Source: Candidatus Hermodarchaeota archaeon (GTDB lineage: Archaea > Asgardarchaeota > Heimdallarchaeia > Hodarchaeales > Hodarchaeaceae). Taken from it: a DNA stretch of 22,743 nucleotides. Location of the stretch: the NCBI GenBank assembly GCA_048886185.1, contig JBHLKY010000021.1, positions 36,886-59,628 on the forward strand. Reading direction: 5' to 3'. Below the pieces are notes generated by a model, which saw only the letters and a list, made by a program, of their open reading frames with translations, made no database searches and was not told the origin of the DNA. How positions within the stretch are numbered: the stretch's first letter is position 1; each line of letters starts with the position of its first letter. Below, piece by piece: positions 1 to 22,743 of this stretch. The position numbers were made by a program, and so were the translations under genes.

Positions 1-1425
1 TTGGATGGTCAAGATATTTGCAATAAAACAGTTGAATTAGCTTTAGAAAACGATGCTACTTATGCAGAGGCCAGATTTGAGTCATCACAATATACCCAAT
101 TTGTTTTGAAAAATGGAATACCAGAGCTAGGAGAGTTTGATCGAACCTCTGGAGTTGGGGTTCGAGTCCTTGTTGATGGGGCAATGGGGTTTGCATCTTT
201 TAATGTTTTAGATAAAGAAAACATAAGAGAAGCAGTGAAACAGGCAACCAAACTAGCAAGAACCAGTGGACGACTAAGAAAACATCCCATTGTGTTCTCC
301 GAAGAAAAAGCTCAGGAAATGAAATATGCGGCAGAAGTATCTCAAGCTCCAAGGGAAACGGATCCTGAAGAGAAAATGAAGATATTATTTGATATTGACA
401 AAGGAATTTCATCCCTTCCTATTCCATATAGAATTGTTATCCTGCTTGATACAGAGAGTCAAGGATATTATGTTAATTCTGATGGTTCCCGAATTGAAAG
501 CTATATTCCCAGAATATTTTTCTATGGATTGTTAACTGCTGTCGATCAATCTAGAGGAGCTATGGAACAGGCCTATTTTTCAAAGGGCGCTACAGGTGGT
601 TACGAATGGATCGAGAAGTGGAATCTAATTACTTTTTTAGAACAAGAAGCGAAAATTCTATCACGAGTAGCCTCTGAGGCTAAAGACCCACCAAAAGGAA
701 TGGTTGATTTCGTGATAGGCCCAAGTGTAGCTGGAATAATAGCTCATGAGAATTGTGGCCATCCTTCAGAGGCTGACCGGATTCTTGGGCGGGAAGCAGC
801 TCAAGCAGGGGAATCATATTTGGGACCTGATAAATTGGGGGAAAAAATAGGATCTGATTATCTTACAATAATTGATGATCCTACAACAATCGGCTCTTAT
901 GGATATTATCTGTTTGACGCAGAAGGAGTGCCTGCTAGACCTCGCTATCTGATAAAAAATGGAGTTTTTACTGAAATGTTACATAATAGGGAATCAGCTG
1001 GATTTTTGAACACTCAATCAACTGGAGCAGCACGTGTATCGGCTTATAATCGTGAACCAATTCCAAGGATGTCCAATACTTATATTACTGGAGGGGATTA
1101 TGAATTTGAAGAGATTTTCGAAGATGTTAAGGTGGGTATTTTCATGAAAAATCACTCTGAATGGAATATCGATGATCGTCGTTTCCAAAGTAAATATATC
1201 GGTAGAGAAGCCTATCTCATTCGTAATGGTGAATTGACTGATGAATTAGTAAGAAGACCCGTATTAGAGACCACAACACCTGATTTATTTCGTGCTATAG
1301 ACGCTGCGAGTAAAAAATTAGAATTTGATGCTGCCATGTGTGGTAAGGGTGATCCTATGCAAGTTGCACCTGTATGGAACGGTGGAGCTGAAGCAACTCG
1401 AATTAGGAGTATTATGGTGAGGTAA
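1..1425 (+). CDS. tldD: TldD family metalloprotease (TldD/PmbA family, catalytic subunit)
   Basis: 474-aa ORF with the TldD zinc motif HExxGH (AHENCGHPSEADR), RMSNTYI and the C-terminal CGKGDPMQ motif. It abuts a PmbA paralogue. The TTG start is base 1 of the window, so the true start could lie upstream. Confidence 0.93.
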   Translation: MDGQDICNKTVELALENDATYAEARFESSQYTQFVLKNGIPELGEFDRTSGVGVRVLVDGAMGFASFNVLDKENIREAVKQATKLARTSGRLRKHPIVFSEEKAQEMKYAAEVSQAPRETDPEEKMKILFDIDKGISSLPIPYRIVILLDTESQGYYVNSDGSRIESYIPRIFFYGLLTAVDQSRGAMEQAYFSKGATGGYEWIEKWNLITFLEQEAKILSRVASEAKDPPKGMVDFVIGPSVAGIIAHENCGHPSEADRILGREAAQAGESYLGPDKLGEKIGSDYLTIIDDPTTIGSYGYYLFDAEGVPARPRYLIKNGVFTEMLHNRESAGFLNTQSTGAARVSAYNREPIPRMSNTYITGGDYEFEEIFEDVKVGIFMKNHSEWNIDDRRFQSKYIGREAYLIRNGELTDELVRRPVLETTTPDLFRAIDAASKKLEFDAAMCGKGDPMQVAPVWNGGAEATRIRSIMVR

Positions 1426-2793
1426 ATGACGAGTAATCAGACAGAAGTTTTAACATTAGATACAATCTTGGAGAAATCTCTTAGATATTTGGAGAAGACA
1501 TCTCCTGAAGATGTGATTGTATATGGGAATGACAATATAAATTTTCAGATACGATTCACTAGGAATGATATAATTGTGAGTAAACGATGGGCAAATATTG
1601 AGTTAGGATTTTTTTATGTTAAAGATAAAAAAATGGCAGCAACAGAAATCTCAGACATTTCATCTCTTGAATTAATCTATCACACATTGGATGACTTGAT
1701 TAAGTTCAGTCGAGCTCTTCCTCCAAAAGAAGATTATGGAGGTATAGCAGAAGGGCCTTTTGAGTACCAGTCTGTTCCAGATTTATACGATGAAAAGATA
1801 ATGGATTTCTCTGATAAAGCTGTCGATCAAATAGAACAAGGTCTTAACAGTGCTTTGGAGGCTGGGGCTAAACATAGCGCTGGAATTCTTGAATGGGGTT
1901 ATTCTAATCATAAGACTCTGACTAATCATGCTATAGACGTTACTGAAATCTTTTCGAGGTTTGAATTCTTAATTCGATCATTTGTTGAACCAACAGAGTC
2001 TGGTCAAGGAATGAGTGTTGGAAGAATGCTCAGATCACTAGATACTTTGCAAGCAGGGAATACTGCGGGGACCATTGCCGCTTTAGCGAGAGGAGCAAAA
2101 TCTGGTAAAGCAGGAATCTATAATGCACTGTTATCACCTACAGTAGTTGCAGATATCATTGCAGGTACAGTGAAGAACGCAAATCCCTTCACAATTGAAA
2201 TTGGCCAATCTTGGTTGAAAGATAAGGTAGGAGAACAAATAGCATCTAGTCTCTTCTCCGCGTATGATAATGCAGTAATTCCCGATGCTTTGGGAAGTCG
2301 CAAAGCAGATATGGAAGGAGTCCCGAGTCAAAATACAAGTATCTTAGAAAAAGGTGTATTAAAGAATCTCATCCATAATACAAGCACAGCTAATAAAGCT
2401 GATACAGAAACAACAGCTAATGCTGGGATTATTGCTCCCCAAAATAGTAATATAATGATTAAACCAGGGAATTACTCCTTTAAGGAGATGATAGATGAAT
2501 GTAGAAAACCTACAATCTATGTTACATCTAATTTTTATACAAGAACAACTAATGCAGCAGAGGGTACATTTAGTACCATTCCCAGAGATGGTATGTTTTT
2601 GATTGAGAAAGGTGAGATTAAAAAACCTATTCGGGAGCTTCGGATTTCTGATACATTTCCTAACCTCGTGAATAACATAATTGCAGTTCAGAATAAAACC
2701 CGTCAAATAAAATGGTGGGTCGAGGTGACCACTCCAACGTTAGCTCCAGCAATGTTGATTGAAAATGTCAACTTCACAACAGGTACCCAATAA
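1426..2793 (+). CDS. pmbA: PmbA/TldE family protein (non-catalytic partner of TldD)
   Basis: 455 aa; its ATG follows the tldD TAA directly (TAAATG). TldD/PmbA-type segments DMEGVP...ILEKGVL, GMFLIEKGEI and PAMLIENVNFT are present, but there is no HExxGH motif. Confidence 0.9.
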   Translation: MTSNQTEVLTLDTILEKSLRYLEKTSPEDVIVYGNDNINFQIRFTRNDIIVSKRWANIELGFFYVKDKKMAATEISDISSLELIYHTLDDLIKFSRALPPKEDYGGIAEGPFEYQSVPDLYDEKIMDFSDKAVDQIEQGLNSALEAGAKHSAGILEWGYSNHKTLTNHAIDVTEIFSRFEFLIRSFVEPTESGQGMSVGRMLRSLDTLQAGNTAGTIAALARGAKSGKAGIYNALLSPTVVADIIAGTVKNANPFTIEIGQSWLKDKVGEQIASSLFSAYDNAVIPDALGSRKADMEGVPSQNTSILEKGVLKNLIHNTSTANKADTETTANAGIIAPQNSNIMIKPGNYSFKEMIDECRKPTIYVTSNFYTRTTNAAEGTFSTIPRDGMFLIEKGEIKKPIRELRISDTFPNLVNNIIAVQNKTRQIKWWVEVTTPTLAPAMLIENVNFTTGTQ

Positions 2794-4452: not shown

Positions 4453-5493
4453 ATGAAAACTTATCATAAGATTTTTTTTAGTAATTCTAGTAATATGAAG
4501 GAAATCCTTTCTGAAAGTGTTGATCTAGTAGTAACAAGTCCCCCTTACCCGATCATTGAATTATGGGATGAGCTCTTTGCTGGAATAAACCCAGAAATTC
4601 AAAAAGCATTAGCTGCACATGATGGGCTTTTGATATTTGAATTAATGCATAAAGAACTTGATAGAGTCTGGAGAGAAGTCTATCGTGTTTTGAAAAAAGG
4701 TGGAATTGCTGCTATTAATATTGGAGATGCTGTTCGAACAATTGGAAACAACTTTATGCTCTATCCAAACCATTCAAGAGTATTAAATTATTTTCTTGAT
4801 CTAGGATTCAGTTCCTTACCAGTGATCATATGGCATAAACCAACAAATGCCCCTAATAAGTTCATGGGATCTGGAATGTTACCTCCTGGCGCATATGTCA
4901 CATTAGAGCATGAATACATCTTGATCTTAAGAAAAGGTGGAAAAAGAGAGTTTAATGAATTCCAAGAAAAGATGATTAGACAAAAAAGCTCTTATTTTTG
5001 GGAAGAACGGAATACTTGGTTTTCTGACCAATGGTACATGAAAGGAATGCCTCAAAACCTTGATGTTGGAACAAGAGATAGAAGTGCTGCTTTCCCTTTC
5101 GAGTTGCCTTATCGTCTCATAAATATGTTTTCAATCAAATATGATTTGATTTTAGACCCATTTCTTGGTACAGGTACAACAACGCTGGCAGCGATGACTT
5201 CAGGTAGGAATAGTATTGGTTTCGAATTAGACGCAAAGCTGGAAGAAATAATTTTTCAACGAATAAATAATATTCAGAAACTTGCTAATCAATACCTAGC
5301 AGAACGCTTGCGGAGGCATGAAATTTTCGTTCAAGAAAGACTGGCCAAGGGAAAACCTTTGAAACACATAAATAATGTGCATAATTTTCCTGTGATAACA
5401 AAACAAGAAGAATACCTGACTTTTGATTTTTTAAGAGCTGTATATCCAAAAGAAAACAATCACTTTGAAGTAATTTATGAGGAGAAGGTATAA
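4453..5493 (+). CDS. Orphan beta-class DNA methyltransferase (N4-cytosine type, SPPY)
   Basis: Catalytic motif IV (DLVVTSPPY) precedes SAM-binding motif I (ILDPFLGTGTT), which is the beta-class order. A GGTGA RBS lies at 4438-4442. No nuclease gene is adjacent. Confidence 0.93.
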   Translation: MKTYHKIFFSNSSNMKEILSESVDLVVTSPPYPIIELWDELFAGINPEIQKALAAHDGLLIFELMHKELDRVWREVYRVLKKGGIAAINIGDAVRTIGNNFMLYPNHSRVLNYFLDLGFSSLPVIIWHKPTNAPNKFMGSGMLPPGAYVTLEHEYILILRKGGKREFNEFQEKMIRQKSSYFWEERNTWFSDQWYMKGMPQNLDVGTRDRSAAFPFELPYRLINMFSIKYDLILDPFLGTGTTTLAAMTSGRNSIGFELDAKLEEIIFQRINNIQKLANQYLAERLRRHEIFVQERLAKGKPLKHINNVHNFPVITKQEEYLTFDFLRAVYPKENNHFEVIYEEKV

Positions 5494-5521
5494 TTCCCCC
5501 TTCAAAAGTACGTGAATCATT

Positions 5522-6745
5522 ATGGGTGTAAAAATTCCTCAAATTACTCCAAACGAATTAAAACGGGTGTTAATTGTTGGTTGTCATTTACATCATTGGC
5601 AAGGTAACGATATTAGAAGAATAATTCAAGAACAGGGAATAGTTCAACTTGATCCTTTAAATCCAGCAGGCAGATATCATGATATCTTTTTCAGCTCTCG
5701 TACGCAAAAATATCAACAAGGAGACTTTGAAAAAATTGTCTATCCTGAAAAATTAGTATTTGAATCTTATTTTCATAATTTAAACGCGATTCATATTGAT
5801 CATTTTCCTCTTTTCTATTCTCAAACTCTTGATAAAGAACATCTAGGTAGATATTATAGCCGAGCGCTAAGAATACTTGAACAATCACACCCAGATATGC
5901 TTGATCAGGTTTTAGATTATGTACAAGCTCATAGTATAATACGGGGTTCTGATCTAACCACTCTAGGAAAAGCTGACCCCAAATATGCAGTATGGAAAAC
6001 TAGTAGTAATTCAGGAACAGCTCTTGAGTTACTCTGGGCTATGGGGAAATTGGCTGTTATTCGTGACGATAATTTTAGAAAAACTTATGTTACTATAGAA
6101 AATTATATTGAACCATCTAAGCTTGTTAAGAAATCTTATTCAAAAGAAGAACAACAATATTTGAAGATGAAACTTAAACTACAGAGTTTTCCCATCATTT
6201 CTGTAGGCAAATTGTCTATTAAGAAGGACGGAAATGTAAGATTTGGAAAAAAAACAGGTATTTCTCCTAAAAAAGTGCTTATAGATGAGGAATCTAGCGA
6301 GAGATTATCACCCACCCTCGTTCAGTTAAACAATGAAGCTACAGGATATATTATACCTTCAAACTGGAAGGATTTGTGTCAAAAAAATTTAGATGAAGAA
6401 ATGAGAGTTATTGGTCCATTAGATCCACTTATTTGGGATAGACAACTATTGAATAAGTTATTCAGCTTTGATTATGTATGGGAAGTCTACAAAAAAGTTG
6501 AAGATCGAATTTGGGGTTATTATGTCTATCCAATTCTTTTTCAAGGTAATTTTATTGGAAGATTAGAAGCAAAGTATGAATCCAAGTCATTAAAACTTCG
6601 TCTGTTCAATTTTCAAGCTGAAAATCACTTATCTCTTAGCCCAGATACAGAAGAAGCATTTAATCGAATGTTAAGTAGGTGGAAGAATATGGTTGGGGCA
6701 GAAAAACTTGAATATGATAAATCAATACCATTCGCAATGATTTGA
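5522..6745 (+). CDS. ycaQ: YcaQ/AlkZ (HTH_42 winged-helix) family DNA glycosylase, interstrand-crosslink repair type
   Basis: N-terminal Q-x-D catalytic motif (VQLDP). The C-terminal blocks PLDPLIWDR, FDYVWEVY and RIWGYYVYPIL...FIGRLE match the YcaQ pattern. Confidence 0.88.
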   Translation: MGVKIPQITPNELKRVLIVGCHLHHWQGNDIRRIIQEQGIVQLDPLNPAGRYHDIFFSSRTQKYQQGDFEKIVYPEKLVFESYFHNLNAIHIDHFPLFYSQTLDKEHLGRYYSRALRILEQSHPDMLDQVLDYVQAHSIIRGSDLTTLGKADPKYAVWKTSSNSGTALELLWAMGKLAVIRDDNFRKTYVTIENYIEPSKLVKKSYSKEEQQYLKMKLKLQSFPIISVGKLSIKKDGNVRFGKKTGISPKKVLIDEESSERLSPTLVQLNNEATGYIIPSNWKDLCQKNLDEEMRVIGPLDPLIWDRQLLNKLFSFDYVWEVYKKVEDRIWGYYVYPILFQGNFIGRLEAKYESKSLKLRLFNFQAENHLSLSPDTEEAFNRMLSRWKNMVGAEKLEYDKSIPFAMI

Positions 6746-6854: not shown

Positions 6855-8159
6855 TTGGCAAAAGAGAAAATTGAATGGTACCATGATTTTATAGATAGAG
6901 AATATCAACCTAAGGAAAACGACCTGGTTGCTCTTTTTTACTTTGAGAAATCGAATGAAGTGTCTATAGACGATACTATAGGCAGATTGGCATCTGAGTC
7001 ATCAATTGGAACTTGGACCACTTTAGAAACACTCGATGATCGAATTTATGATATGCGTGGACGTGCTTTCTGGAATGAAGAGCATTTAGTTAAAATTGCT
7101 TATCCTTTAGTTTTATGGGAGCTAGACAACATTCCACAACTCATGTCAGGAATAGCTGGAAATATCTTTGGAATGAAAGCTGTCCAGAATTTAAGATTGA
7201 TTGATGCTACTTTACCATTAGATTATATTAAGGGTTCCAAAGGCCCTCATTTGGGTACTGAAGCCATTCAGTCAATTTTCAAGAGGGAGGAAGGACCATT
7301 GCTTGCCTGTGTTCCTAAACCAAAGATTGGTTTGACTGTGGAACAGCATTGTGCCATTGCATGGGACTTTTGGAGTGCTGGAGGGGATCTAGTGAAAGAT
7401 GACGAAAATCTAACCTCTCAATCGTTTAATATTTTTGAGAAACGCGTCGAACAAATGGCGAGAGTTCGAGATAAGGCAGAGAATGAAACAGGTGAAATAA
7501 AAGATGCGCTTATCAATGTAACTGCCGAAACACATGAGATGGAAGAGCGGGTCAAGCTTATTCATAATCATGGATTTAGGTATTTTATGATTGATGTCGT
7601 TACAACTGGTTTTGCAAGTGTTCAGACCATAAGGAATCTTGCCGAGGATCTTGATATGGCAATACATGCACATAGAGCTATGCATGCAACCTTTACTAAA
7701 CATACATCCCATGGGATCAGTATGTATTTCTTGGCGAAATTAATGAGATTAATTGGTGTCGATAATATCCATATTGGAACTGTAGTAGGTAAGCTTGACA
7801 GTCCGAAAGAAGATGTTTTAGATATGAGAGATCTTTTACTCAAATCAGAAGTAAGTGAGGTAAAGAATAGAAGACTCTCTCAATCATGGGGTAATATTAA
7901 GCCTACATTACCAGTTGCTTCTGGAGGACTGCACCCTGGCGTAATTCCTGAAGTATTATCTGTCTATGGAACGACTGATATGCTTCTTCAAGTTGGTGGG
8001 GGCATTCACGGTCATCCTGACGGCACCTATGGAGGAACGAAAGCTACTGTTCAGGCAATAGAAGCATTTCAAGAAGGAATTTCGTTGGAAGAAAAAAGTA
8101 AATCACATCCTGAGCTTCAGAAAGCCTTGAAGAAATGGAGTTATTTAAAACCAATCTAG
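6855..8159 (+). CDS. rbcL: Form III (archaeal) ribulose-1,5-bisphosphate carboxylase large subunit
   Basis: All canonical active-site motifs are present: ESSIGTW, AGNIFGM, VPKPKIG, GGDLVKDDEN (carbamylated Lys), HAHRAMH, HIGTVVGK, VASGGLH and GGGIHGHP. 434 aa, no small subunit nearby. TTG start with GGTGA about 10 nt upstream. Confidence 0.96.
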   Translation: MAKEKIEWYHDFIDREYQPKENDLVALFYFEKSNEVSIDDTIGRLASESSIGTWTTLETLDDRIYDMRGRAFWNEEHLVKIAYPLVLWELDNIPQLMSGIAGNIFGMKAVQNLRLIDATLPLDYIKGSKGPHLGTEAIQSIFKREEGPLLACVPKPKIGLTVEQHCAIAWDFWSAGGDLVKDDENLTSQSFNIFEKRVEQMARVRDKAENETGEIKDALINVTAETHEMEERVKLIHNHGFRYFMIDVVTTGFASVQTIRNLAEDLDMAIHAHRAMHATFTKHTSHGISMYFLAKLMRLIGVDNIHIGTVVGKLDSPKEDVLDMRDLLLKSEVSEVKNRRLSQSWGNIKPTLPVASGGLHPGVIPEVLSVYGTTDMLLQVGGGIHGHPDGTYGGTKATVQAIEAFQEGISLEEKSKSHPELQKALKKWSYLKPI

Positions 8160-8216: not shown

Positions 8217-9038
8217 TTATTTTTTGTGTTTCTTCCTCAAAATGATTAACAGTCCGATTGGAACAACTGATATGAATAGCGATGGGTAATTTGCACCAGT
8301 AGGAGGATGAATATCTACTGTGTTGCTTACAGTGAGGTTATCAAATACTGTGTCGCCAAACCATGATCCGAATATGAAGTTTTCAGAAGTAGTGGTAGTT
8401 TTATCGACAACTTTGAAAACATGCTCACTGTTAATATAGATATTAAATTCTCCAGCAATATTACGGGTAATGTCTATGTGAAACAATCCTTCTAGTGCCT
8501 TTGGGAATTGAAAATAATTTAAAATGACCCAATACTTGGAGGTTTCAATGAATTCAGCTAATGTTACCGCGTGAGGCTTAAGTGAATCTTCTCGTTTCTC
8601 ATCCGAAGTTAAAACTAGCACATACCCAGTGAAATTCTTGGGGATCTCCCCAGATTCTTCAGTGGGACCATAATTATTCGCAATGAAGCAAACAACATCA
8701 TATGCTTGATGATCTGAACCAATGCTGATAAGCCAGTCAAAACTCCACGTGCCATACGCAATGGCACTAGAATGAACAGCTTGACTATAATTCCATTTAT
8801 CTTGAGTATTGGGCATTTTTAAAATTCCATTTTCAATTGTCGGAGCGAAATTTTGATTCATAACACAATCAAGTGTTACGCTTATCAAGTCAAATCCTTG
8901 GAGTTTCCACTCATCTGCAGTAGTAAAATCTTCTGACCAGACTATTTTTGCTGTTCCTTGAATTATCGGACTGATGATTAGAAATTCAAGTAAAATTCCT
9001 ATTAGCACGATTAATATGCTATATTTTTTTCGTTTCAT
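8217..9038 (-). CDS. Secreted/surface protein, probable concanavalin A-like beta-sandwich, with C-terminal TM anchor and basic tail
   Basis: Signal peptide MKRKKYSILIVLIGILL... A beta-rich core carries WSEDF, HIDITRNIAGEFNIYIN and FDNLTVS. The C-terminus is a Thr/Pro linker, a hydrophobic helix and RKKHKK. The fold call is pattern recognition only. Confidence 0.75.
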   Translation of the reverse strand: MKRKKYSILIVLIGILLEFLIISPIIQGTAKIVWSEDFTTADEWKLQGFDLISVTLDCVMNQNFAPTIENGILKMPNTQDKWNYSQAVHSSAIAYGTWSFDWLISIGSDHQAYDVVCFIANNYGPTEESGEIPKNFTGYVLVLTSDEKREDSLKPHAVTLAEFIETSKYWVILNYFQFPKALEGLFHIDITRNIAGEFNIYINSEHVFKVVDKTTTTSENFIFGSWFGDTVFDNLTVSNTVDIHPPTGANYPSLFISVVPIGLLIILRKKHKK

Positions 9039-9121
9039 ATTTTTTCTTCCCTTATTCTAAAATAGAGTTTTCATGTCATATCAAGTTTAACTTTCTCTAA
9101 ATATTGCTTCATTGTGATTCG

Positions 9122-10504
9122 TTACAAATCTAAAAATACCATTTTTATTGATAATATGCCTACAACAAGAATAACAACTATAAGGCCTTCTACCAGAAAT
9201 AAAACAGCTATACGCGTGAATGCTATGGATCCAATCAAATTATTTTGAGTAACTGTTAATATTTCAAGATTATCTCCTCTATAAGTATGGTTCCATTGAA
9301 TGACACCAGATTCATCGGTTTTTACTAAATATATGTCATATCCACCTTCAGATGAGTCAATGTGTCCTGCAAGGGCGAAATCCCTATTTGAAGTTAGGGT
9401 CATGGTGCCATCCCCCATATTGCCATAACTTTGGTTCCACTGGATAATTCCTGATGGATCGGTTTTCACTAGGCACAACCCTCCAGCCTCGAAGGCAAAA
9501 CCTCCATCGTGAGTTTGAACCATAACGTCTATACGACTCCACTCCTCACCAAATTCCCCATATGTCTGGTTCCATTGGATGACTCCAGTTGGGTCTGTTT
9601 TCACCAACCATGTGCTAGTATGAAGACATATGCCATGAGATATTCCCTTCGTAGCACCTGCGAGAGCAAATCCTCCATCCTTAGTTTGGATTAAATCAGT
9701 AGTGGCATCATAATCTGTTCCTCCGTAAGTTTGGTTCCATTGGAAATCACCATTCAGATCAATTTTCACCAGCCACATATCATTCCCTCCTGCTCCGAAT
9801 GAATCAGTAGCACTCGCGATGGCAAATCCTCCATCCGTGGTCTGAACTAAAGAAGGAGCACTATTGCAATCAATTTTTTCATAGGTTTGAGTCCATTGGG
9901 TTACTCCATTGGAGTCAGTTTTCACTAGCCACATTTCATTTACATCACCAGCATCATTTGGCCAGTCGTAGCCCGTAATGGCAAATCCACCATCCGTAGT
10001 TTGGACAAGGGAAACATCAGTAGTACGATCCGCAGGATCTGTGAAAGTCTGACACCATAGAATAACTCCGTTTTTGTCTGTTCTCACCAATAAATGACCT
10101 CCAGCAATGGCAAAACCTCCATCTGCAGTTTGAATAATGGCAGAATGAGGATCAAAATTATAAGCCTGGTTCCAAAGGGGTATTCCGTTAGCATCGATTT
10201 TCATCAACCACAAGTAACCACGACCAAAATTTTCAGAATAATAATGAATGAAATCCCCTGCCATGACAAAACCCCCATCTATGGTCTGGAAAAGTGTTTG
10301 TATATAATATTGTCTTGACCTTCCTCCATTAAACACTTCAGGATTTGTGTCCTCCCCAGGGAGTAGGGGGGGGAAAAAGAATGAGAAAACTAAAATAAAA
10401 ATGATCGAGCTTCTTCTACGGAAAAAATTGCGTGGCTTTGAAGGATTTCTTCGGCAATGAGGTTGGAATAATGTATTCTTTCGGAGTCTAAGATTCCAAG
10501 TCAT
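9122..10504 (-). CDS. Membrane-anchored surface protein with seven QTxDGGF...WLVKTD.NG..QWNQTY repeats (probable 7-bladed beta-propeller)
   Basis: 460 aa. A basic N-region and hydrophobic stretch are followed by seven 40-55 aa repeats and a C-terminal TM helix. The start overlaps the upstream stop codon (ATGA at 10504-10501). Confidence 0.85.
   Translation of the reverse strand: MTWNLRLRKNTLFQPHCRRNPSKPRNFFRRRSSIIFILVFSFFFPPLLPGEDTNPEVFNGGRSRQYYIQTLFQTIDGGFVMAGDFIHYYSENFGRGYLWLMKIDANGIPLWNQAYNFDPHSAIIQTADGGFAIAGGHLLVRTDKNGVILWCQTFTDPADRTTDVSLVQTTDGGFAITGYDWPNDAGDVNEMWLVKTDSNGVTQWTQTYEKIDCNSAPSLVQTTDGGFAIASATDSFGAGGNDMWLVKIDLNGDFQWNQTYGGTDYDATTDLIQTKDGGFALAGATKGISHGICLHTSTWLVKTDPTGVIQWNQTYGEFGEEWSRIDVMVQTHDGGFAFEAGGLCLVKTDPSGIIQWNQSYGNMGDGTMTLTSNRDFALAGHIDSSEGGYDIYLVKTDESGVIQWNHTYRGDNLEILTVTQNNLIGSIAFTRIAVLFLVEGLIVVILVVGILSIKMVFLDL
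9275..10300 (-). repeat. Intragenic tandem protein repeats (7 units, consensus LVQTxDGGFAIAG-x-WLVKTDxNGxIQWNQTYG)
   Basis: Visible in the translation and as recurring DNA, e.g. gcaaatcc(t/a)ccatc and tggttcca(t/c)tgg. Boundaries are approximate. Confidence 0.85.
10366..10373 (-). repeat. C8 homopolymer tract (G8 on + strand) at the end of the signal-peptide region of the propeller gene
   Basis: The minus strand reads TTC CCC CCC CTA. This is the longest G/C run I found in this AT-rich window; others reach 6. Confidence 0.8.
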
Positions 10505-10974
10505 CTTTCGCTCATCTCCTTAATCTTCTTGAACAAAAGATCACTGAGATCGGTGGGACGGAGGCTTTTATTGGGTATTTTGATATTTCTCTCTTTAAAT
10601 TCCTGGATCAATGTCTCTCTACAATCACTAAATTCCTCACAGCTCGTACAGTCTCCTTTGTGTTCGTACCATACCTGTAAGCCGTTTTTAGGGGAAAAGG
10701 TTATATGAGCTGAAATGTTGAAAATGTGACTATGTCCTTGGGCAATTCCCAGTTCACTATTAATGAAAACAAGCTTGATTTTATTCATTCTCGCCGCTTC
10801 CTCCAACATTCCCCTAATTCTTTTGTTTGCTTCCTTGATGGATCTACTCACATACCCTGGATCCACATCTATTCGTTCTGCTATCTCTCTTCCCGTTAAT
10901 TTGTTCCGTTTCAAAGCCCAAATAGTTATCTGACTTTCAGTCGGAGGTTTATGTTTATGTGAAAATGAAAACAT
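10501..10974 (-). CDS. HTH DNA-binding protein with a C-terminal His/Cys cluster (putative metal- or redox-sensing transcriptional regulator)
   Basis: N-terminal HTH pattern: TESQITIW...LTGREIAERIDVDPGYVSRSIKEA. The C-terminal WYEHKGDCTSCEEFSDC carries H, CxxC and a third C. Confidence 0.8.
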   Translation of the reverse strand: MFSFSHKHKPPTESQITIWALKRNKLTGREIAERIDVDPGYVSRSIKEANKRIRGMLEEAARMNKIKLVFINSELGIAQGHSHIFNISAHITFSPKNGLQVWYEHKGDCTSCEEFSDCRETLIQEFKERNIKIPNKSLRPTDLSDLLFKKIKEMSER

Positions 10975-13103: not shown

Positions 13104-13607
13104 CTAGCGCCAACTTATTCGTTGGCAATTTGAATCCCGTAGTACTTTATTCAATTCCCCAATATGGTGCATATTGTGTCTTAATAAATATATCATCTTT
13201 TCTAAAACAAAAAGGTTTCCCTGATCAAAACTATCAACTTTAAAAAAATCGTCATCCGTAGAGGTGTTTAGAATAACCAGAATTCTATTCTCTATCTCCT
13301 CAAGATATGGTAAAAGAGACTCTTTTGTTATATTAGATAACTTCCTATTAATTTCATCTTCAGAATTTGTTTCCCAATTGATCCCTGCTCGTTCTCCCCA
13401 ATTCATACCTATAGGTGTATCACGGCTATAAAATTCAGCAGTTTCAATTATATGGAATACATTCCATGAATAGGACCAATCGTTTATTTTTGTAAACCAA
13501 TTCTCTTCAGTAATATTTTCAAGAGCTTGTCGTAACATATTCCAGCTATTTTGGAATTCCTTAGCTAATATTGAGCCTATTTTTTTTTCTGGTTTTAGGT
13601 TGTTCAT
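13104..13607 (-). CDS. DinB/YfiT superfamily four-helix-bundle protein
   Basis: Typical length (167 aa). An N-terminal His (VFHIIE) and C-terminal LLRHNMHHIGEL form the metal triad. An AGGTGA RBS lies upstream. Confidence 0.85.
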   Translation of the reverse strand: MNNLKPEKKIGSILAKEFQNSWNMLRQALENITEENWFTKINDWSYSWNVFHIIETAEFYSRDTPIGMNWGERAGINWETNSEDEINRKLSNITKESLLPYLEEIENRILVILNTSTDDDFFKVDSFDQGNLFVLEKMIYLLRHNMHHIGELNKVLRDSNCQRISWR

Positions 13608-13713: not shown

Positions 13714-14526
13714 GTGTATATTAATACTCATTTCCATCTAGATGATCCTTGGTTAAAGGGAAACCAAAGACGTCAAGAAGTAATTCAAGATATTGATAAA
13801 AATCAGATTCTTACTTTTGCTCAATCATGTAGTATCCCCTCGTATAAGAATATTTTATCTTATTCAAATCAATCAAGATTTATTTTCCCATCCTTCGGTA
13901 TTCTTCCTTGGTATGCCCATGAGTGCATAGATAGCCTTGATGAAGTAGCAAAGCTTTGTGATGAAGCAATGATGTTAGGGGAGGTAGGATTAGATGAAAG
14001 AAACGCTCGTGATAAAGCCTGCATTCCTCATCAACGTCCCCTCTTTAAGATATTTTTAGAATTTGCAGAAAAAAGGAACATGTTAATGAATCTCCACTTT
14101 CGTGGAACTGAAGAAGAAGGGCTTAATCTGCTAAAATCCTATAATATTAAGAAAGCTATCTTTCATTCATATTCAGGTACGTTAAAATTAATGGAACAAA
14201 TCACGGACCAAGGATATTATTACTCTATTGGACTTACAAGTCTTTTATTGCATCGTATGAAAAATGAAAGAAAAAATCTCTTTATTGAAAAAGTTAAGAG
14301 AATTCCTGAGGATTTACTGGTTCTAGAAGTCGATGAATTACCAACAATAGAATGGTTCAAGATGGACTTCGAACTGAATTCAACTTTATTTCCTAAGATT
14401 ATCAAATCAGTAGCAGAAATAAGAAATAGTACTCCAGAAGAAATTAAATCCCTTTGTCATAGAAATGTGTTGAATCTTATAGGCAACGATTCAAAGCTAA
14501 AAGAAGCCAGAAAAATCCTTAATTAA
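13714..14526 (+). CDS. tatD: TatD family metal-dependent hydrolase/DNase
   Basis: NTHFH (canonical DxHxH), GILPW, GEVGLD, LHFRG, FHSYSG and LVLEVD. GTG start with GAGG upstream. Confidence 0.88.
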   Translation: MYINTHFHLDDPWLKGNQRRQEVIQDIDKNQILTFAQSCSIPSYKNILSYSNQSRFIFPSFGILPWYAHECIDSLDEVAKLCDEAMMLGEVGLDERNARDKACIPHQRPLFKIFLEFAEKRNMLMNLHFRGTEEEGLNLLKSYNIKKAIFHSYSGTLKLMEQITDQGYYYSIGLTSLLLHRMKNERKNLFIEKVKRIPEDLLVLEVDELPTIEWFKMDFELNSTLFPKIIKSVAEIRNSTPEEIKSLCHRNVLNLIGNDSKLKEARKILN

Positions 14527-15046: not shown

Positions 15047-15121
15047 TATAACAGAGGGGATTTGAGGTTTTTTAATAAGTTTTTTTTCCAAATTATTCTA
15101 AAAATAATCAAGGTAATTGAG

Positions 15122-16462
15122 ATGTTTTTGAAAGACGAACTTGAAGCTTTTTATGGAAAACGACCAAAATCAAAAAAATTATGGGAAAAGTCATTACAAG
15201 TGTTACCAGGAGGGATTTCGCATAATATAAGAAATTTTGGACTTCCTTCTATTGGAGCATTTCCTCCATTTATTCGTTCTGCAGATGGCGCAATGATAAC
15301 AGATATTGATGAGAATGAATACATTGATTGTTGGAATGGGCATTTTGCGATGATTCTAGGTCACAATCATCCTGAAATTCAAAAGATTATTGAAAAACAT
15401 TCAAAATATGGATGGCATTTTGGAACAAACACTGAAAATCAAGTTAAATTAGCAGAAACACTTATTCATGATAATGAGAGTATTGATAAGGTTCGATTTT
15501 GTACTAGTGGTACCGAAGCTACAATGTATGCTATCAGATTAGCGCGAGCATTCACTAACAGAAGGTTGATAGCAAAGGCAAAGCTTGGCTGGCATGGAGC
15601 AAATGATACCCTATTTTATGATGTTGGTGGTCTTATTGTTGGAAAAGATACCCCTGGCATCTTAGAACAAGATGAAGCAGGAGTAATGTCTTTTCAAATA
15701 AACAGCAATGAAGTATTTGATTTCATTCAAAAAAATGCATCCAAGCTTGCTGCAGTGATTTTGGAACCTGTTCTAGGAGGAGGGGGTGGATTTCCTGTAG
15801 ACACTGATTTTATGATGAGATTGAGAGAAGAAACAAGTAAAAATGATATTCTATTGATCTTTGATGAAGTGATTACAGGATATAGATTTACTTATGGATT
15901 ATTTCAGAATAAGCTCAAGATTTTTCCAGATCTAACAACCATGGGAAAAATTATTGGAGGGGGGTTCCCAGTTGGAGCTGTTGGTGGACGCAAAGACATT
16001 CTCGAACAAGCAATCCCTCAATCAAAAAATCAGGTGTTGATAGGTGGTGGTACTTTTTCAGGATTCCCTCTTAGTATGGCTACAGGATTAAAGACTTTAG
16101 AATTATTAAGAAAATCAGTTAAAGAATACCAGCGTATTAATACTGAAGGGACTAAACTTCAATATAAATTGAATCAATTTTTAAATGACCAAAAGATACC
16201 GATTGTTGTAACAGGCTTCAACTCAATAGTGATGCTTCATGTTCTATCCAAGTGGGTAGAAGAACCTACAATCAACGACATCATTGAACTGACGGAACGA
16301 AAACGTGAATCACTACTCCAACTTGCATTATTCAATCGCCATATCATTGGATTACATGGTTTAGGCTCTTTATCAATGGCTCACACACAATCCCAGGTTC
16401 TTTATCTTCAACAAACAGTAGAGGAAATCGCCAAACCTGTTACCAAATCACCTATAGTATGA
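15122..16462 (+). CDS. Class III PLP aminotransferase, glutamate-1-semialdehyde aminomutase (HemL)-like
   Basis: YIDCW...ILGH, RFCTSGTEATMYAIRLAR, FDEVITGYR and the PLP-lysine motif TMGKIIGGGFPVG. The start is placed at the ATG at 15122 (AGGT upstream) rather than the TTG at 15062. Confidence 0.88.
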   Translation: MFLKDELEAFYGKRPKSKKLWEKSLQVLPGGISHNIRNFGLPSIGAFPPFIRSADGAMITDIDENEYIDCWNGHFAMILGHNHPEIQKIIEKHSKYGWHFGTNTENQVKLAETLIHDNESIDKVRFCTSGTEATMYAIRLARAFTNRRLIAKAKLGWHGANDTLFYDVGGLIVGKDTPGILEQDEAGVMSFQINSNEVFDFIQKNASKLAAVILEPVLGGGGGFPVDTDFMMRLREETSKNDILLIFDEVITGYRFTYGLFQNKLKIFPDLTTMGKIIGGGFPVGAVGGRKDILEQAIPQSKNQVLIGGGTFSGFPLSMATGLKTLELLRKSVKEYQRINTEGTKLQYKLNQFLNDQKIPIVVTGFNSIVMLHVLSKWVEEPTINDIIELTERKRESLLQLALFNRHIIGLHGLGSLSMAHTQSQVLYLQQTVEEIAKPVTKSPIV

Positions 16463-16530: not shown

Positions 16531-17562
16531 TTAAAATCTCTTCTTCTTAGTGGGATAAGCCTTGAATGGAGTACGAGGTTCAAGACTTAACCAATCTGTG
16601 GTATCATCTAAGTGAGAAAGAGAATGTAATAAATCATAAGTCACCCAGCGAGATGCTTGAGGATGAGGGGAGTATTCCCATAACCCATAAGGCCCTTGTA
16701 AGTTAATAACAAAATCTAAGAAGCTTGCTATTCTTTCATCTTCAAGACTAGCTTTAATTCGCCAACATAAGTGAAGAATGAAAGCGACATCAAATTTAGC
16801 AAAATGAGTAAAGTATCCACCCATTGGTTCTAACCCAATCGTACGAGCAACCTCAAATCCAAGAGTGTGCTTCTCATGGGTTTCACGGGCAAGAAGTAAG
16901 TTCAATGCCTTACGAGCTGCTTTACCTGTTCTATGTTGAGGATGTAAAGCCAAACAGTGTATTATAGCAGTAGTATTTGTACGGCATCCCCAACGGGAAT
17001 GAGCAAGTCTTCGATATCCTGCAATGAAACCTTTTGTTCCAGCTTTTGTGCCCGCTGGCCATGACCCATCTTTTAATTGATGAGCAATTAACCATTCATA
17101 GCCACGCTCAGCTCGTTTATCAGTAGAATATCCACATGATGCTATGGCTCGCAAGGGAAAAGCTGTTTGTAAAGGAATCATATCATATCCTCCATCAATT
17201 TTTTGGCTCTTGGCTGGAAGAGGCCAGGAACCATCATCCAATTGCCTTGTAAAGAGAAATTCCACTCCATTCTTAACGGATGGATGACGAGATGAAAACC
17301 CTAAGAATCCAAATCTTAGTAAAACCATTGATGTAGCTGTAATTTTATCGGTATATGTGAATAAATGTGAGAAATCACTACCTTTCCATGAACCATCATC
17401 CTTTTGGAATTCAATAAAGTCTATTATTAGAGGATCTGAATCAAGAATTTCTCTTAATTCCTTTACTTCTTGGTCTGATTCTGATTTATGGAGTAGATTC
17501 TTCAGCACCAATAAACGCAAACAAGGCGATGGATCAGCCAACAATAATGGTATTCGATTCAT
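16531..17562 (-). CDS. Prenyltransferase/squalene-cyclase QW-repeat (alpha/alpha)6 barrel protein of unknown function
   Basis: Four QW motifs: QKDDGSW, QLDDGSW, QLKDGSW and QGPYGLW. No DxDD cyclase motif. The ATG at 17562 overlaps the uvrA stop (ATGA). Confidence 0.85.
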   Translation of the reverse strand: MNRIPLLLADPSPCLRLLVLKNLLHKSESDQEVKELREILDSDPLIIDFIEFQKDDGSWKGSDFSHLFTYTDKITATSMVLLRFGFLGFSSRHPSVKNGVEFLFTRQLDDGSWPLPAKSQKIDGGYDMIPLQTAFPLRAIASCGYSTDKRAERGYEWLIAHQLKDGSWPAGTKAGTKGFIAGYRRLAHSRWGCRTNTTAIIHCLALHPQHRTGKAARKALNLLLARETHEKHTLGFEVARTIGLEPMGGYFTHFAKFDVAFILHLCWRIKASLEDERIASFLDFVINLQGPYGLWEYSPHPQASRWVTYDLLHSLSHLDDTTDWLSLEPRTPFKAYPTKKKRF

Positions 17563-20500
17563 GAACAATTCCCCAATACTTTTTGAATGTAAGGAGCAGT
17601 TGGAGTCTTGTGAGTTGCCACTTTGGAAGGGGTTCCATTTGCAAGAATATGACCCCCTTCTGGCCCCCCGACGGGTCCAAGTTCAATTACCCAATCACAT
17701 GCTGCAAGTACGTATGGATGGTGTTCAATTACTACGACAGTGTTTCCCTCGTCGACTAACTGATGAAGAACTTTCATTAATTGAGATATATCTTGTAAAC
17801 TCTGGCCTATGGTAGGTTCATCTAAAATATATAGAGTTGAAGGTTCTGATTTTGACTTCTTTCGGCATAATTCTTTTGCAATCTTTAATCGTTGACATTC
17901 GCCTCCTGATAAATGGATTCTTGGTTGACGTAAGATTAAATATCCAAGTCCCACTTTTTTTGCCATTTTTATTGGACGAGAAATTCTCTCATCATAATTG
18001 AATAAGTCATATATTTGATTAAGTGTTAAATCATATAGTTCTGGTAATGTGTAGCCATGTAATCGAACCATCCATGCTTCTGCTGTGAGACCAGTTCCTT
18101 CACAAATATCACAACGAATATATACATCAGGGAGGAACCCCATGTCCATTTTAATCATACCTCTCCCATTACAATGTGAACATTGTCTATATAACTGTGT
18201 TTCATCCAATTCAACAGCTTTTGCATCATCACTCTCTGCATATAGGGAATAAAGGGGCTTTTTTAAGTTCAAATAAGTAAGGGGACTACTCACCTCTTGT
18301 TTTGATTGATCGATGATTATTGTTCTTGATGGAACTCCTTCAATAGAGTCATATCTTCCAGGTTCAATTGGCTCTTGTGCAACTGATGTTGTGTGTTTCT
18401 TAGGAGCTAAAATACGTCCTAAAGTATCAATTAAGAGTGTACTTTTCCCTGAGCCAGAAACACCACATATTCCTACAAGTGTACCTAATGGTATTTTAAA
18501 GGGTTCTCCTTTAAGGTTATTTTGTGATGCACCGTTCAAAGTTAACCACCCTTGAGGATTTCTATATGATCCATACTTCGTAGGGCGTTTAAATCGCCTT
18601 TTTCCGCTTAACCATAAAGCAGTGATCGTATCAGAGTTTATGATATCCGATACTGTACCTTGAGCTGTAATTGTACCCCCCAACACCCCTGGCCCTGGTC
18701 CTATATCTATTATATAATCAGCAGCCTTTATCATCTGAGGATCGTGCTCAATTACAATAACAGTGTTACCTTCATCACGAAGACTAATTAACGCACTGAG
18801 TAATCCATTAATTTCATTCGGATGAAGTCCTCTAGTTGGTTCGTCAAGTAATACAGTAAGAGAGGTGAGACTACTACCAAGTAATCCTGCTAGTTTTATA
18901 CGCTGTGCTTCTCCAGCACTTAAGGTCATTAATATTCGTGAAGCATTCATATATCCTAAGCCGACTTGATTTAAGAACTCTAAACGTCGAATCATTGTAT
19001 CTAGACTGTATTTGGCAACATGAGTGTCAATATCTGGTAGAATAAGGTTATTTAATACTTGTTGAAGTTGTATAAAAGGCATTTCATTTAGTTCGTGAAT
19101 ATTGTAAGTACTTAGTGTCACCGTAAGATATTCTGGTCTGAGTCTGGTCCCATTACATTCAGAACATGTTTCTGAGGATGTGTAGGTTCCACCTACGTCC
19201 CAATCACCAATCCATCCATAAAAACCTTTAAAATTAATAATCCTAGTATAATCCCCAAGTTTTTTACTTTTACTTTCAAAATTTACTTCTAAAGGTTGTT
19301 GATCTCCAAATAGAAATGCCTGTTGAGCTTCAGATTTCATCTCATTCCAAGGAGTAACCATTGGATCGAATCCATAACGATTAGCCAAAGCCTGAATTAT
19401 ATAGTATCCTCCATTATATCGTTTACACAGGTACCCTTTCGGAAAGAAACCTGGGGAAAACATAGCTCCTTTACACAATGGTTTTTCAGGATGAATAATT
19501 AATTTTTCTGGGTTAGGTATTTGAATGGTTCCAACCCCTTGGCATGCTTGACACGCAGATGCATAATTAGAAGGCGAGAAATACTTTGGTTTTGGAACTG
19601 GAGAAATTTTTCTGCATTTAGGGCAAATCCATTCATTTTGACTTTTCCGACATGATAAACCACAGGTGGGGCAAAAATAATCTCCAAAATTCGAGATTAA
19701 AACTGTTAAATGATGAGAAATCTCAGTTATTAAACCAACAGTTGAACGATAATTATACCATCTGCCTATTCGCTTGGGGTCAATGCTAATAGTTACACCA
19801 AGACCTGAAACGGAGTCAACGGGTGCTTCAGGACCCTCACTTAAGCCTTGTCGTTCATAAAGGGATAATGTCTCAAGATATCGCCTTTCTGCTTCAGCTT
19901 TTAAAACATCATTGATCAAACTTGATTTTCCAGAACCAGATACTCCTGTAATTACTGTTAATGCTCCTTTTGGAAATTCTACTGATATTTTTTTCAGGTT
20001 ATTAGCTGAAGCATTTTTAATTTGGATTGTGTCTGATATTCTGGATAGTTTAGTTTGTTTTGCTTCAGGATTTATTGATTCTTCATAATGAAGTCCTTGT
20101 GTTGTCAAGGACTCTATTTTGTTTAATAATCCTTGGGGAACCCCGCTATATATTAATTCTCCTCCTAATGGTCCTGCACCAGGTCCAAGATCAATGATCC
20201 AATCAGCTGCTCGAATGAAATCTGAATTATGCTCTACAACCACCACTGTTGCTCCAGTACGAATTAGTTTATCCAAAACAGACAAAAGACATGAAATATC
20301 ATAGGGGTGAAGCCCTGTAGATGGTTCGTCCAATAAAATAAGCTGATCTTCTAGCGATTTTTTTCCCAGATATTTAGCCAATTTTACTCGTTGAGCTTCT
20401 CCTCCAGAGAGCGTTGGCGATGGTTGACCTAGAGGGAGATATCCCAATCCAACATCTTTTAACGCTTCAAGAATTCGTTTTACAGTGTTTCTATCTTTTT

Positions 20501-22463
20501 GCGTTAAATTCAGATTACTACTTTTAATAAACCACTCGTAAGCTTCGTCGACTGATAGCTTATAGAAGTCTGCTATTGAAAGCGATTCTTTTTCGAATTG
20601 TACTTTTAGAGACAGGACTTCTCTTGAAAAACGTTCTCCCTCACAGATACTGCATTGAATCCAAGTTGAAGGTAGATAACGCATTTTTACCTCAACTGCT
20701 CCCATTCCTTTACAATCTTCACACCATCCTTCTTCCCGATTGAATGAAAAGTGAGAGGGAGATAACTTCGTTATTCTCGCAAAAATATCCCTAATGACTG
20801 CTGCTAAGTTAGTATAGGTTGCTGGATTTGACCGTGGATTTTTCCCAATTGGTGATTGATCAACAAGAAGGGGTTTTAACTCCTTTCCTTTAATTTCTTT
20901 ACATCCAACTGGTTTTTTCTTCGATAATGATGCATGTAACACATCATCAATAAATGTGCTTTTACCACTTCCACTAGGCCCTGTTATGACTGTTAAACGT
21001 CGTAGTGGAATTCTAATGTTAATACTTTTAAGATTCCTGAAATTTGCTTCAATGATCTCTATAAATTGAGATGGAGGTGACCGATGTTCAGGAATCTTTA
21101 CATGCTCACGCATACTGAAGAAACGACCAGTATAACTCTCTTCTCGCCATAATGAAGGTAATGCTCCTGAAAATATTATTTTTCCTCCTTCTTTACCTGC
21201 TCCAGGTCCAAGATCTATGGCTTGATCTGCAGCAGCCGCTGCAACTCGATCATGTTCTACAAAAATAACAGGTCCACTAAATTGTTGGAATGCTGGAAGA
21301 AGGTTAGTTACATCCATTATACTTAAACCAATAGTTGGTTCATCTAACACATGCACCATATCTTCTAATCTGCTAATTAATGCAACCGCTAAACGGACTC
21401 TCTGAGATTCACCTCTTGATAATGTAGGTGATCGACGATTTAAGGTAATATAACCTAAACCAACTGTTATTAAAGCTTCTAATCGTCTCTGAATTTCAAA
21501 AATCACACGATTTGCTGATGAGGCTTCTTTTGGATCCTTAAAAATGGTAGAAAGCTCATCAACTGATCGAGCTAGAAGCTCTGGTAAATGAGAGCCATTC
21601 CAAGTAATTGATAAAGCTTCCGGATGTACTCCAGTCTTCTGACATTGATCACATCCGTTCCTGTTACAAAATGGACAGGGAGTGTTAAATATTGTTGTTT
21701 TTATACCTTTAATCCATTGGCCACATTCAGGACAAACATTAGTAAATGAAAGTGTAGAACGATTCCGATTTTGTGATTCATACTGCACACTAATACAATT
21801 TGCACCAAGAGATTTTATTTTTTGGACACATTTTCTAATTGTACTCAAAGAGATTGAATTATCAATAGCTGCGATTCGAATTTCAATATCATGAGAGTCA
21901 TGTGGATCTAATTCTTTAAATTGATATTGAAATCCATCCACTAGTAGTGCTTCCTTCCCAAATTCTTCAACAAGTGTATCTAATAAAGTTCTATGGCTTC
22001 CTTTTACTCCCTTTACCAAAGGAGCATAAATACTTATTGAATCAACTTTAGCAATACTGAATAGTTGATCGATGATCTCATCCTCTGAATAAATGCGAAT
22101 GGCTGTTCCACACGCTGTACAATGACGTTGACCAAAATTTATATAGAAGATTCTTAAAAAAGGATGTAATCCAGAAGCAGATGCGAGGGTGGATAGAGGA
22201 TTCCGATTGAGGATGTTCTGTTCGATTGCAATTGTTGGACCCAATCCTGAAATCCGTTGAACATTAGCTGGGGCTAGACGGGGTTTAGATCCTCGCGTAA
22301 ATATCTCCGAAAAACGTCGACGGGCTTCATGATATAATGTTGAGAAAATAAGAGAACTTTTTCCACTACCCGATATTCCAGTAACGACAGTTAAACCATC
22401 TCCAAATTCAATATCAATATTTTGAAGGTTATTTTCATTAGCTCCTTCTATCTGAATTTTCAT
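17559..22463 (-). CDS. uvrA: Double-length (tandem-fused) UvrA-family ABC ATPase, four nucleotide-binding domains
   Basis: 1634 aa. Four Walker A motifs ([24 protein letters not shown] x2), four signatures (LSRGE, LSGGE, LSAGE, LSGGE), four DEP Walker B motifs and many CxxC zinc modules. UvrA-specific motifs include ANxNNL and DLGPGAG. Confidence 0.93.
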
Positions 22464-22525
22464 GATTTCACAATCATTATAGAAGTGTTAAATAGAGAAA
22501 AATGGCTTAACAACGACTATTCTGC

Positions 22526-22535
22526 TTTATATAAA
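22526..22535 (-). promoter_or_regulatory. Candidate TATA box (TTTATATAAA) upstream of uvrA
   Basis: Strong archaeal TATA consensus about 65 nt upstream of the ATG. It is self-complementary, so it could also serve a plus-strand gene outside the window. Confidence 0.4.
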
Positions 22536-22743
22536 TCATTTATCTGGTGGAGAAGTGATCGAAGAAAAAAAACTAGAGTAAGATAACCACCTTGATATTA
22601 TTCAACATACTAGCAAGATATTCAACTAAATCACTAGGAATATATGACAATGGGTCGTTTAGTCCCAAGTCATCATCACAAAAGTAGAATCTTGCTATTG
22701 ATCAATTAATGTCTTCAGTAATTTCTTTAACATAAAATACTTA

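Follow-up and report, generated by a model that had tools for sequence, protein, structure and literature searches.

A single-chain, asymmetric double UvrA encoded with a QW-repeat toroid protein: a candidate accessory system for DNA damage in archaea and bacteria

What could a protein with the fold of a terpene cyclase be doing beside a UvrA? The question is raised by a stretch of 22,743 nucleotides from Candidatus Hermodarchaeota archaeon (GenBank assembly GCA_048886185.1, contig JBHLKY010000021.1, positions 36,886 to 59,628 of the forward strand), referred to below as the window. On its minus strand a uvrA-like open reading frame (ORF) for a protein of 1634 residues, here called double UvrA, is followed directly by an ORF for a protein of 343 residues, here called the toroid (Table 1). 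To our knowledge UvrA has long been studied as a symmetric homodimer with UvrB and Mfd as its only partners, and a search of the published literature found no paper on a pair of double UvrA and toroid. A preliminary description of the window had proposed the toroid as the dedicated partner of an asymmetric UvrA in an undescribed two-gene system. Judged from the sequences, the pair may represent UvrA-based DNA surveillance with an unprecedented partner.

The pairing is constant across genomes. A scan with one genome per species returned 169 toroid relatives, from which 80 loci were taken, five of them starting at the toroid gene. Each of the 75 loci in which sequence upstream of the toroid is available has a double UvrA there, encoded on the same strand, 52–74% identical to that of the window and mostly matching its residues 1–1630. 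After clustering of the ORFs from the 80 loci, only the double UvrA and toroid families were common to all. Carriers are Asgard archaea, Bathyarchaeia, Chloroflexota and Aminicenantes, and the archaeal and bacterial copies of both proteins are about 55% identical. A further toroid subfamily from Actinomycetota (39% identical) is paired with a double UvrA in all 13 metagenome loci with upstream DNA. It includes proteins attributed to cultured Actinopolymorpha (A. pittospori and A. cephalotaxi), Kribbella (K. antiqua) and Microlunatus (M. speluncae); since cultured actinomycetes thus appear to carry the subfamily, the question is open to bench study. Linkage of toroid homologues to double UvrA in other genomes, which the preliminary description had named as the check on its proposal, was therefore found wherever upstream DNA was available.

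The two genes also occur together when whole genomes are considered. Among 301 Asgard genomes the toroid was found in 73, the asymmetric UvrA in 68 and both in 65; the 11 genomes with one gene only represent contig ends or fragments. The module is accessory, with a patchy distribution (73/301 Asgard genomes, 24%, and 7 of 20 in its own genus). Toroid and UvrA distances are closely correlated (r 0.94), and the toroid tree clusters by taxon, with a few transfers between the two domains of life. Linkage and co-occurrence together uphold the toroid as dedicated partner at the genomic level. In seven genomes of one Asgard family a symmetric double UvrA of 1961 residues was found, which carries both accessory domains in both halves and has no adjacent toroid, so that the toroid goes with the asymmetric form and not with the fusion as such. 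This symmetric form (L091:4525-10410 and L092:4746-10631) adjoins an N6/N4 DNA methylase and an NTP-transferase/HD protein.

Two kinds of irregular loci were noted. Intact toroid genes with only a C-terminal double UvrA remnant of 612 (L039:8166-10004) or 337 residues (L051:2904-3917) upstream could stem from gene decay, represent a deletion variant or be due to misassembly. UvrA-toroid fusions, of which only two were found (741 and 1289 residues), were discarded as evidence for an interaction because the UvrA frame breaks shortly before the junction, which makes them frameshift read-throughs and not true fusions.

The arrangement of the two genes suggests joint translation. Direct reading confirmed that the uvrA stop codon TGA and the toroid ATG overlap in ATGA, as described before. 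A four-nucleotide overlap of the type NTGA is present in 62 of the 75 related loci (43 ATGA, 14 GTGA, 5 TTGA), and this recurrence marks it as more than chance. In most related loci a GGAGG-like run stands 8–12 nucleotides upstream of the toroid start, inside conserved V-L-E-G codons of uvrA, and a G-rich counterpart is found in the window. The overlap may thus couple translation of both genes, with the G-rich or GGAGG run serving re-initiation at the toroid start. An alternative start, TTG at 17568, lies two codons upstream of the ATG; the homologues align from the ATG. Unrelated genes are inserted between uvrA and toroid in four loci.

The pair is also closed off on both sides, in accordance with the preliminary description. 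The neighbour downstream of the toroid gene, at a distance of 68 bp, is a convergent gene for a class III aminotransferase (15062-16462, plus strand). The non-coding gap 5' of uvrA, for which at least 280 bp had been given, comprises 280 bases inside the window and reaches 530 bp in the contig, where a divergent gene bounds it. The part of the gap inside the window, with its A/T-rich boxes, is the presumed promoter of the pair. A scan of the region for bacterial-type promoters and terminators gave matches at chance level only, as expected for an archaeal host.

The double UvrA itself appears active. It was matched by TIGR00630 with 1405.6 bits in five stretches and by NF001503 with 1315.1 bits, both values being sums over the two halves. 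At all four ATP sites the Walker A lysine, the signature, the Walker B aspartate-glutamate pair and the H-loop histidine are intact and conserved to about 100% in 49 full-length orthologues; signature motifs 1 and 3 deviate throughout the family, reading LSRGE and LSAGE. Alignment of the two halves with the two ordinary UvrAs of the same genome (965 and 950 residues) showed that they are incomplete in complementary ways. Half 1 retains the UvrB-binding segment between the first zinc-module cysteines and has lost the insertion domain, its zinc module running directly into the core of the ATP-binding cassette (ABC). In half 2 the insertion domain is retained and the UvrB-binding segment is deleted. 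The asymmetry claimed earlier for this protein is therefore real, and together with the intact ATP sites it makes the protein an active-looking, intrinsically polar pseudo-dimer. Besides its two ordinary uvrA genes the genome encodes uvrB and uvrC, which indicates that double UvrA is an extra system and not the main excision repair of the cell.

Retention of a UvrB-binding-type domain in half 1 throughout the family raises the question whether the module is a specialised entry into excision repair. Double UvrA would then load the UvrB of the cell on one defined side of the lesion with the toroid as adaptor or specificity factor, comparable to alkyltransferase-like proteins that pass lesions on to UvrA, or the toroid would dock there in place of UvrB. 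In line with this, uvrB is found in the present genome and in 66 of the 73 module-bearing Asgard genomes; it is, however, also found in 237 of all 301 and in about 75% of the module-free ones. Since uvrB is common anyway, its co-occurrence with the module says little about use of UvrB or independence from it. The domain itself is poorly conserved, with a mean conservation of 0.40 over the 49 orthologues, among the lowest in the protein, and its matches are weak: Pfam UvrA_inter was found at residues 126-201 with 29.3 bits (E 8.5e-7), and the segment alone had as best match in the PDB the UvrB-binding domain of UvrA (9gxk residues 145-226, E 0.0033; 3fpn, E 0.017). For the insertion domain of half 2, which matches Pfam UvrA_DNA-bind weakly at residues 987-1080 (26.2 bits), conservation was 0.64.

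The two domains also differ in their relation to the toroid. In exploratory partial Mantel tests, in which the divergence of each UvrA segment was compared with that of the toroid while the rest of UvrA was factored out, the insertion domain of half 2 ranked highest (partial r 0.50 over all sequences, 0.51 within archaea and 0.47 within bacteria), followed by the first part of the second ATPase module of half 2 (0.35–0.48). The UvrB-binding-type domain of half 1 gave values of 0 or less in all three sets, which speaks against a role as entry into excision repair; we consider that reading rather unlikely. As the UvrA segment nearest to the toroid gene did not rank highest, the signal cannot be put down simply to proximity on the DNA.

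The fold of the toroid was assigned by Pfam (SQHop_cyclase_C, E 6.5e-11) and by an AlphaFold2 monomer model built on 18 homologues, which shows an (alpha/alpha)6 toroid (predicted local distance difference test, pLDDT, 79.6; predicted template modelling score, pTM, 0.82). Its best structural matches are squalene-hopene cyclase (Z 15.4, root-mean-square deviation 4.8 over 259 residues) and drimenyl diphosphate synthase (Z 14.6). With 46.1 bits against a cut-off of 322.7 for TIGR01787, the protein lies far under family cut-offs, and its look-alikes in the Protein Atlas are generic cyclase-fold clusters only. The four QW motifs and the missing DxDD of the preliminary description were both found, with the specification that three motifs are canonical QxxDGSW (residues 53, 107 and 162) and one is a degenerate QGPYGLW (residue 289); DxDD (D.DD) occurs nowhere in the 343 residues.

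More characteristic than the fold are two conserved elements, a signature loop and a C-terminal tail, which contain the basic patch (GYRRLAHSRWGCR, from residue 182) and the basic, aromatic tail (PFKAYPTKKKRF, from residue 332) noted before. Their family consensus sequences are GYR(R/K)LxHS(R/K)WGCRxNTT for the loop and EPRTPFxxYPxxx(K/R)R(F/Y) for the tail, the latter with invariant E328, P329, R330, P332 and F333 and a conserved terminal basic-aromatic pair. Both elements are retained in toroid members down to 37% identity and missing from distant paralogues without an adjacent double UvrA. The earlier argument from charge, by which nucleic acid or an acidic partner would be bound, is weak, for the isoelectric point within the family ranges from 5.2 to 9.2 and overall charge is not conserved. 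In the monomer model pLDDT falls below 50 for the loop, at residues 172-190, and for the tail. The loop probably takes up an ordered structure only when a partner or ligand is bound, and the tail might represent a docking peptide. Over the 18 homologues, from Asgard archaea, Bathyarchaeia and Chloroflexota and thus from two domains of life, mean column identity of the toroid is 69%. Of the candidate zinc ligands, considered by comparison with zinc-dependent toroids (protein prenyltransferase beta subunit, LanC), H188, H207 and C266 are invariant in close homologues and variable in members at 37–45% identity; only C193 is retained there. A thioester domain of the complement C3 or alpha-2-macroglobulin type was considered and rejected: no CGEQ is present in the toroid, its sole invariant cysteine lies in GCR(S/T)NTT, and the Z of about 12 is generic. 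Second toroid paralogues of 308–373 residues, without loop and tail, were observed near the module in several loci (L029:863-1879, L049:11172-12098, also L024 and L025).

Genes next to the pair differ by lineage and repeatedly concern DNA damage, as seen in four lineages. The divergent gene upstream of the pair (L093:580-1344, plus strand, about 530 bp from uvrA and a short way outside the window) encodes a protein of 254 residues with HEAT-like repeats that belongs to the AlkD2/AlkC family of alkylpurine glycosylases (Pfam DNA_alkylation 5.3e-7; PDB 6m9m, E 1.4e-15, and 5vhv, E 1.4e-13); homologues also occur close to the module in L009 and L012. The loci of an Anaerolineae clade have, directly upstream of the pair and on its strand, genes for an AlkZ-like glycosylase (E 3.8e-65), for a methyltransferase and for a metallophosphoesterase, and one actinobacterial locus has a Glyoxalase_6 protein and a nicotinamide adenine dinucleotide-dependent DNA ligase downstream of it. 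Thirteen Loki loci share a same-strand array of DUF3795, BtrH_N/DUF4872, S-adenosylmethionine methyltransferase, a class II-type UvrA of 835 residues, double UvrA, toroid and a glyoxalase/bleomycin-resistance family protein.

This last array invites a comparison with class II UvrAs such as DrrC and Ecm16, which would assign the module to drug removal and sequestration: UvrA would strip a non-covalent binder from DNA, and the freed molecule would be trapped or modified in the cavity of the toroid and so kept from rebinding. According to PMC9328131, Ecm16 acts without UvrB or UvrC and requires ATP hydrolysis. Half 2 of double UvrA has the class II layout, being without the UvrB-binding domain, toroids of the same fold accommodate hydrophobic ligands in their central cavity, and in the Loki loci the pair is flanked by a class II-type UvrA on one side and a glyoxalase/bleomycin-resistance protein on the other, with BtrH-like and methyltransferase genes as further neighbours. 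On the other hand, no recognisable biosynthetic cluster was present in the loci examined, and the glycosylase and ligase neighbours indicate covalent damage. The very high conservation of the toroid across domains is unexpected for a lineage-specific drug binder; the identity of about 55% that both proteins show between archaea and bacteria fits a universal substrate such as DNA better. We therefore regard removal and sequestration of a drug as quite unlikely.

Defence against phages or plasmids is a further reading, in which an ABC ATPase would sense foreign or abnormal DNA and act together with an effector. Pairs of this kind are common in defence systems, and the patchy distribution, even within a genus, as well as some transfers across the two domains of life would fit. 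UvrA also matches ABC models of PADLOC such as mad3, but these matches include several unrelated systems, and that to mad3 reflects generic ABC similarity over seven stretches; the toroid matches no model of PADLOC-DB 2.0. The pair is not flanked by defence islands, the tree groups by taxon and the rate of sequence evolution is low. In 72,556 plasmid records the toroid is absent, its query matching a squalene-hopene cyclase only, and the UvrA query matches ordinary single uvrA genes. All this makes a role in defence highly improbable.

We tentatively prefer, while stopping just short of calling it probable, an accessory complex of UvrA and toroid which acts beside the ordinary UvrABC and handles bulky DNA adducts, crosslinks or DNA-bound genotoxins, with the toroid as a pocket for capture, verification or chemistry. 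Double UvrA would correspond to a UvrA dimer written as one chain, with four working ATP sites and full zinc modules; its two accessory domains, each present once, the UvrB-binding-type one in half 1 and the insertion domain in half 2, would give it a fixed polarity on DNA. The toroid would be an obligate subunit of this complex, translated from the shared mRNA through termination of uvrA and re-initiation at the NTGA overlap. The ATP-driven UvrA part would locate bulky adducts of the alkylation type, crosslinks or genotoxins held tightly on DNA. Capture, verification or chemical removal of the adduct or ligand would fall to the pocket of the toroid, whose signature loop, containing the invariant Cys193, and C-terminal tail would be the working and docking elements. 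Co-variation would place the contact of the toroid on half 2, around the insertion domain, and not on the UvrB-binding-type domain.

Several observations weigh against this accessory complex. The toroid fold is generic, with epimerases, GH76 enzymes, LanC cyclases and thioester domains at Z 11–14; as many other toroids score nearly as well as the cyclases, the fold by itself says little on function. No known catalytic motif was found in the toroid. Kinship among the sequences inflates partial Mantel tests, so that the co-variation signal can be taken as a lead only, and recombination within the operon could mimic the co-variation with half 2. The associations with neighbouring genes are lineage-specific and could partly reflect inherited synteny. 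Finally, an exact Cheo-type LexA box, GAAC-N4-GTTC, occurs upstream of the pair in only one of 24 bacterial loci, a motif that may not apply to these phyla; control of the pair by the SOS response was dropped as a candidate on this count. A bolder version of the proposal, which makes the toroid a novel type of subunit in DNA repair that binds or chemically processes the lesion found by a polar single-chain UvrA, in a UvrB/UvrC-free pathway for bulky adducts or crosslinks spread by gene transfer over Asgard archaea, Bathyarchaeia, Chloroflexota and Actinomycetota, is unlikely.

Table 1. Features of the double UvrA–toroid pair (positions in the window unless loci are named)
Feature	Position	Strand	Details
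Double UvrA gene, 1634 residues, single chain	17559..22463	-	Four ABC ATPase sites and zinc modules of both halves
UvrB-binding-type domain, half 1, residues 116-225	21789..22118	-	Diverged; no counterpart in half 2
Insertion (DNA-binding) domain, half 2, residues 976-1100	19164..19538	-	Half 1 without it
Toroid gene, 343 residues from ATG	16531..17562	-	(alpha/alpha)6 with QW repeats, without DxDD; Pfam and AlphaFold2 model
Signature loop of toroid, residues 178-198, G..GYRRLAHSRWGCRTNTT	16969..17031	-	Nearly invariant
Conserved C-terminal tail of toroid, residues 326-343, ..EPRTPFKAYPTKKKRF	16534..16587	-	From alignment
Stop/start overlap ATGA	17559..17562	-	Read from sequence; same NTGA in related loci
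G-rich Shine-Dalgarno-like GGGG	17571..17574	-	9-12 nucleotides before toroid ATG, within last uvrA codons; read from sequence
Upstream non-coding region, presumed promoter of pair	22464..22743	-	A/T-rich TATA-like boxes at 22525-22536 and 22475-22482
Loki array loci	L027, L029, L033, L034, L037, L040, L046, L055, L057, L064, L071, L080, L088		

Elsewhere in the window further genes concerned with DNA were observed. An N6/N4 DNA methyltransferase gene (4453-5493) is immediately followed by one for an AlkZ-like DNA glycosylase (5522-6745, Pfam 1.2e-26), both within 4453-6745 on the plus strand; the latter is a second gene for repair of bulky adducts or crosslinks, 10 kb from the module. A gene for a DinB_2 superfamily protein (13104-13607, minus strand) adjoins that of a TatD-type DNase (13714-14526, plus strand), and a DinB_2 gene is also found in the locus of the closest relative (L009:18057-18557). 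The window further contains a tandem TldD/PmbA metallopeptidase pair (474 and 455 residues, 1-2793, plus strand) and, in this Asgard archaeon, a homologue of the RuBisCO large chain (6855-8159, plus strand, PF00016 1.1e-80). Three ORFs at 8217-10974 on the minus strand (273, 460 and 157 residues) gave no Pfam match; those of 460 and 157 residues overlap by four nucleotides (10501-10504) and may therefore form another coupled pair.

The interest of the module lies in a fused, lopsided UvrA dimer tied to a protein of terpene-cyclase fold and kept about 55% identical across two prokaryotic domains. If the complex forms, it would offer a naturally asymmetric UvrA in which the division of work between the halves of the dimer can be studied, a new class of partner for excision-type repair or genotoxin tolerance, and a DNA-related role for a fold known from lipid and peptide chemistry.

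Compared with known systems, the toroid resembles class II terpene cyclases (squalene-hopene cyclase 1gsz, drimenyl diphosphate synthase 8zg0, MstE 6sbb) in its QW repeats on an (alpha/alpha)6 toroid. Those enzymes consist of two domains and possess the DxDD proton donor, whereas the present protein is a single toroid of 343 residues without it. Signature loop and tail are not known in cyclases, and the gene context is DNA repair and not isoprenoid synthesis. Alkyltransferase-like (ATL) proteins are small lesion binders that present alkylated bases to UvrA and so widen or sharpen recognition in excision repair. The likeness is one of logic only, a small protein working with UvrA; their fold is unrelated, and no translational coupling of their genes to a UvrA of their own is known.

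Among the UvrAs, published work distinguishes class I and class IIa/IIb (PMC9328131). Class II UvrAs (DrrC, Ecm16, PDB 7sh1, and Deinococcus UvrA2, PDB 2vf7) are likewise accessory paralogues, and like half 2 they are without the UvrB-binding domain. They are single-unit homodimers without a dedicated partner gene, unlike the two fused units with a toroid partner described here, and half 1 differs from them in keeping a UvrB-binding-type domain, without the insertion domain. Their structures also match double UvrA less well, with 436 and 416 bits compared to 589 for class I. Symmetric fused double UvrAs (NF001885/PRK00635 type, 1809 residues, and the Asgard form of 1961 residues) share the two UvrA units per chain but carry the full set of accessory domains in each half and are not accompanied by a toroid gene; against NF001885 the present protein reaches 855 bits, under the cut-off of 3054. 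The best sequence and structure-database matches were found with class I UvrA (TIGR00630/NF001503; PDB 9gxk, 3pih, 2r6f, 3zqj), the closest solved structure being 9gxk with 588.8 bits. Two ABC ATPase modules, signature domains and zinc modules are shared with each half. Class I UvrA is a homodimer of chains of about 940 residues with UvrB-binding and insertion domains in every protomer, whereas double UvrA is one chain in which each of these domains occurs once over both halves, in diverged form. It carries the deviant LSRGE and LSAGE signatures, and it is always encoded together with the toroid, in addition to the ordinary uvrA, uvrB and uvrC.

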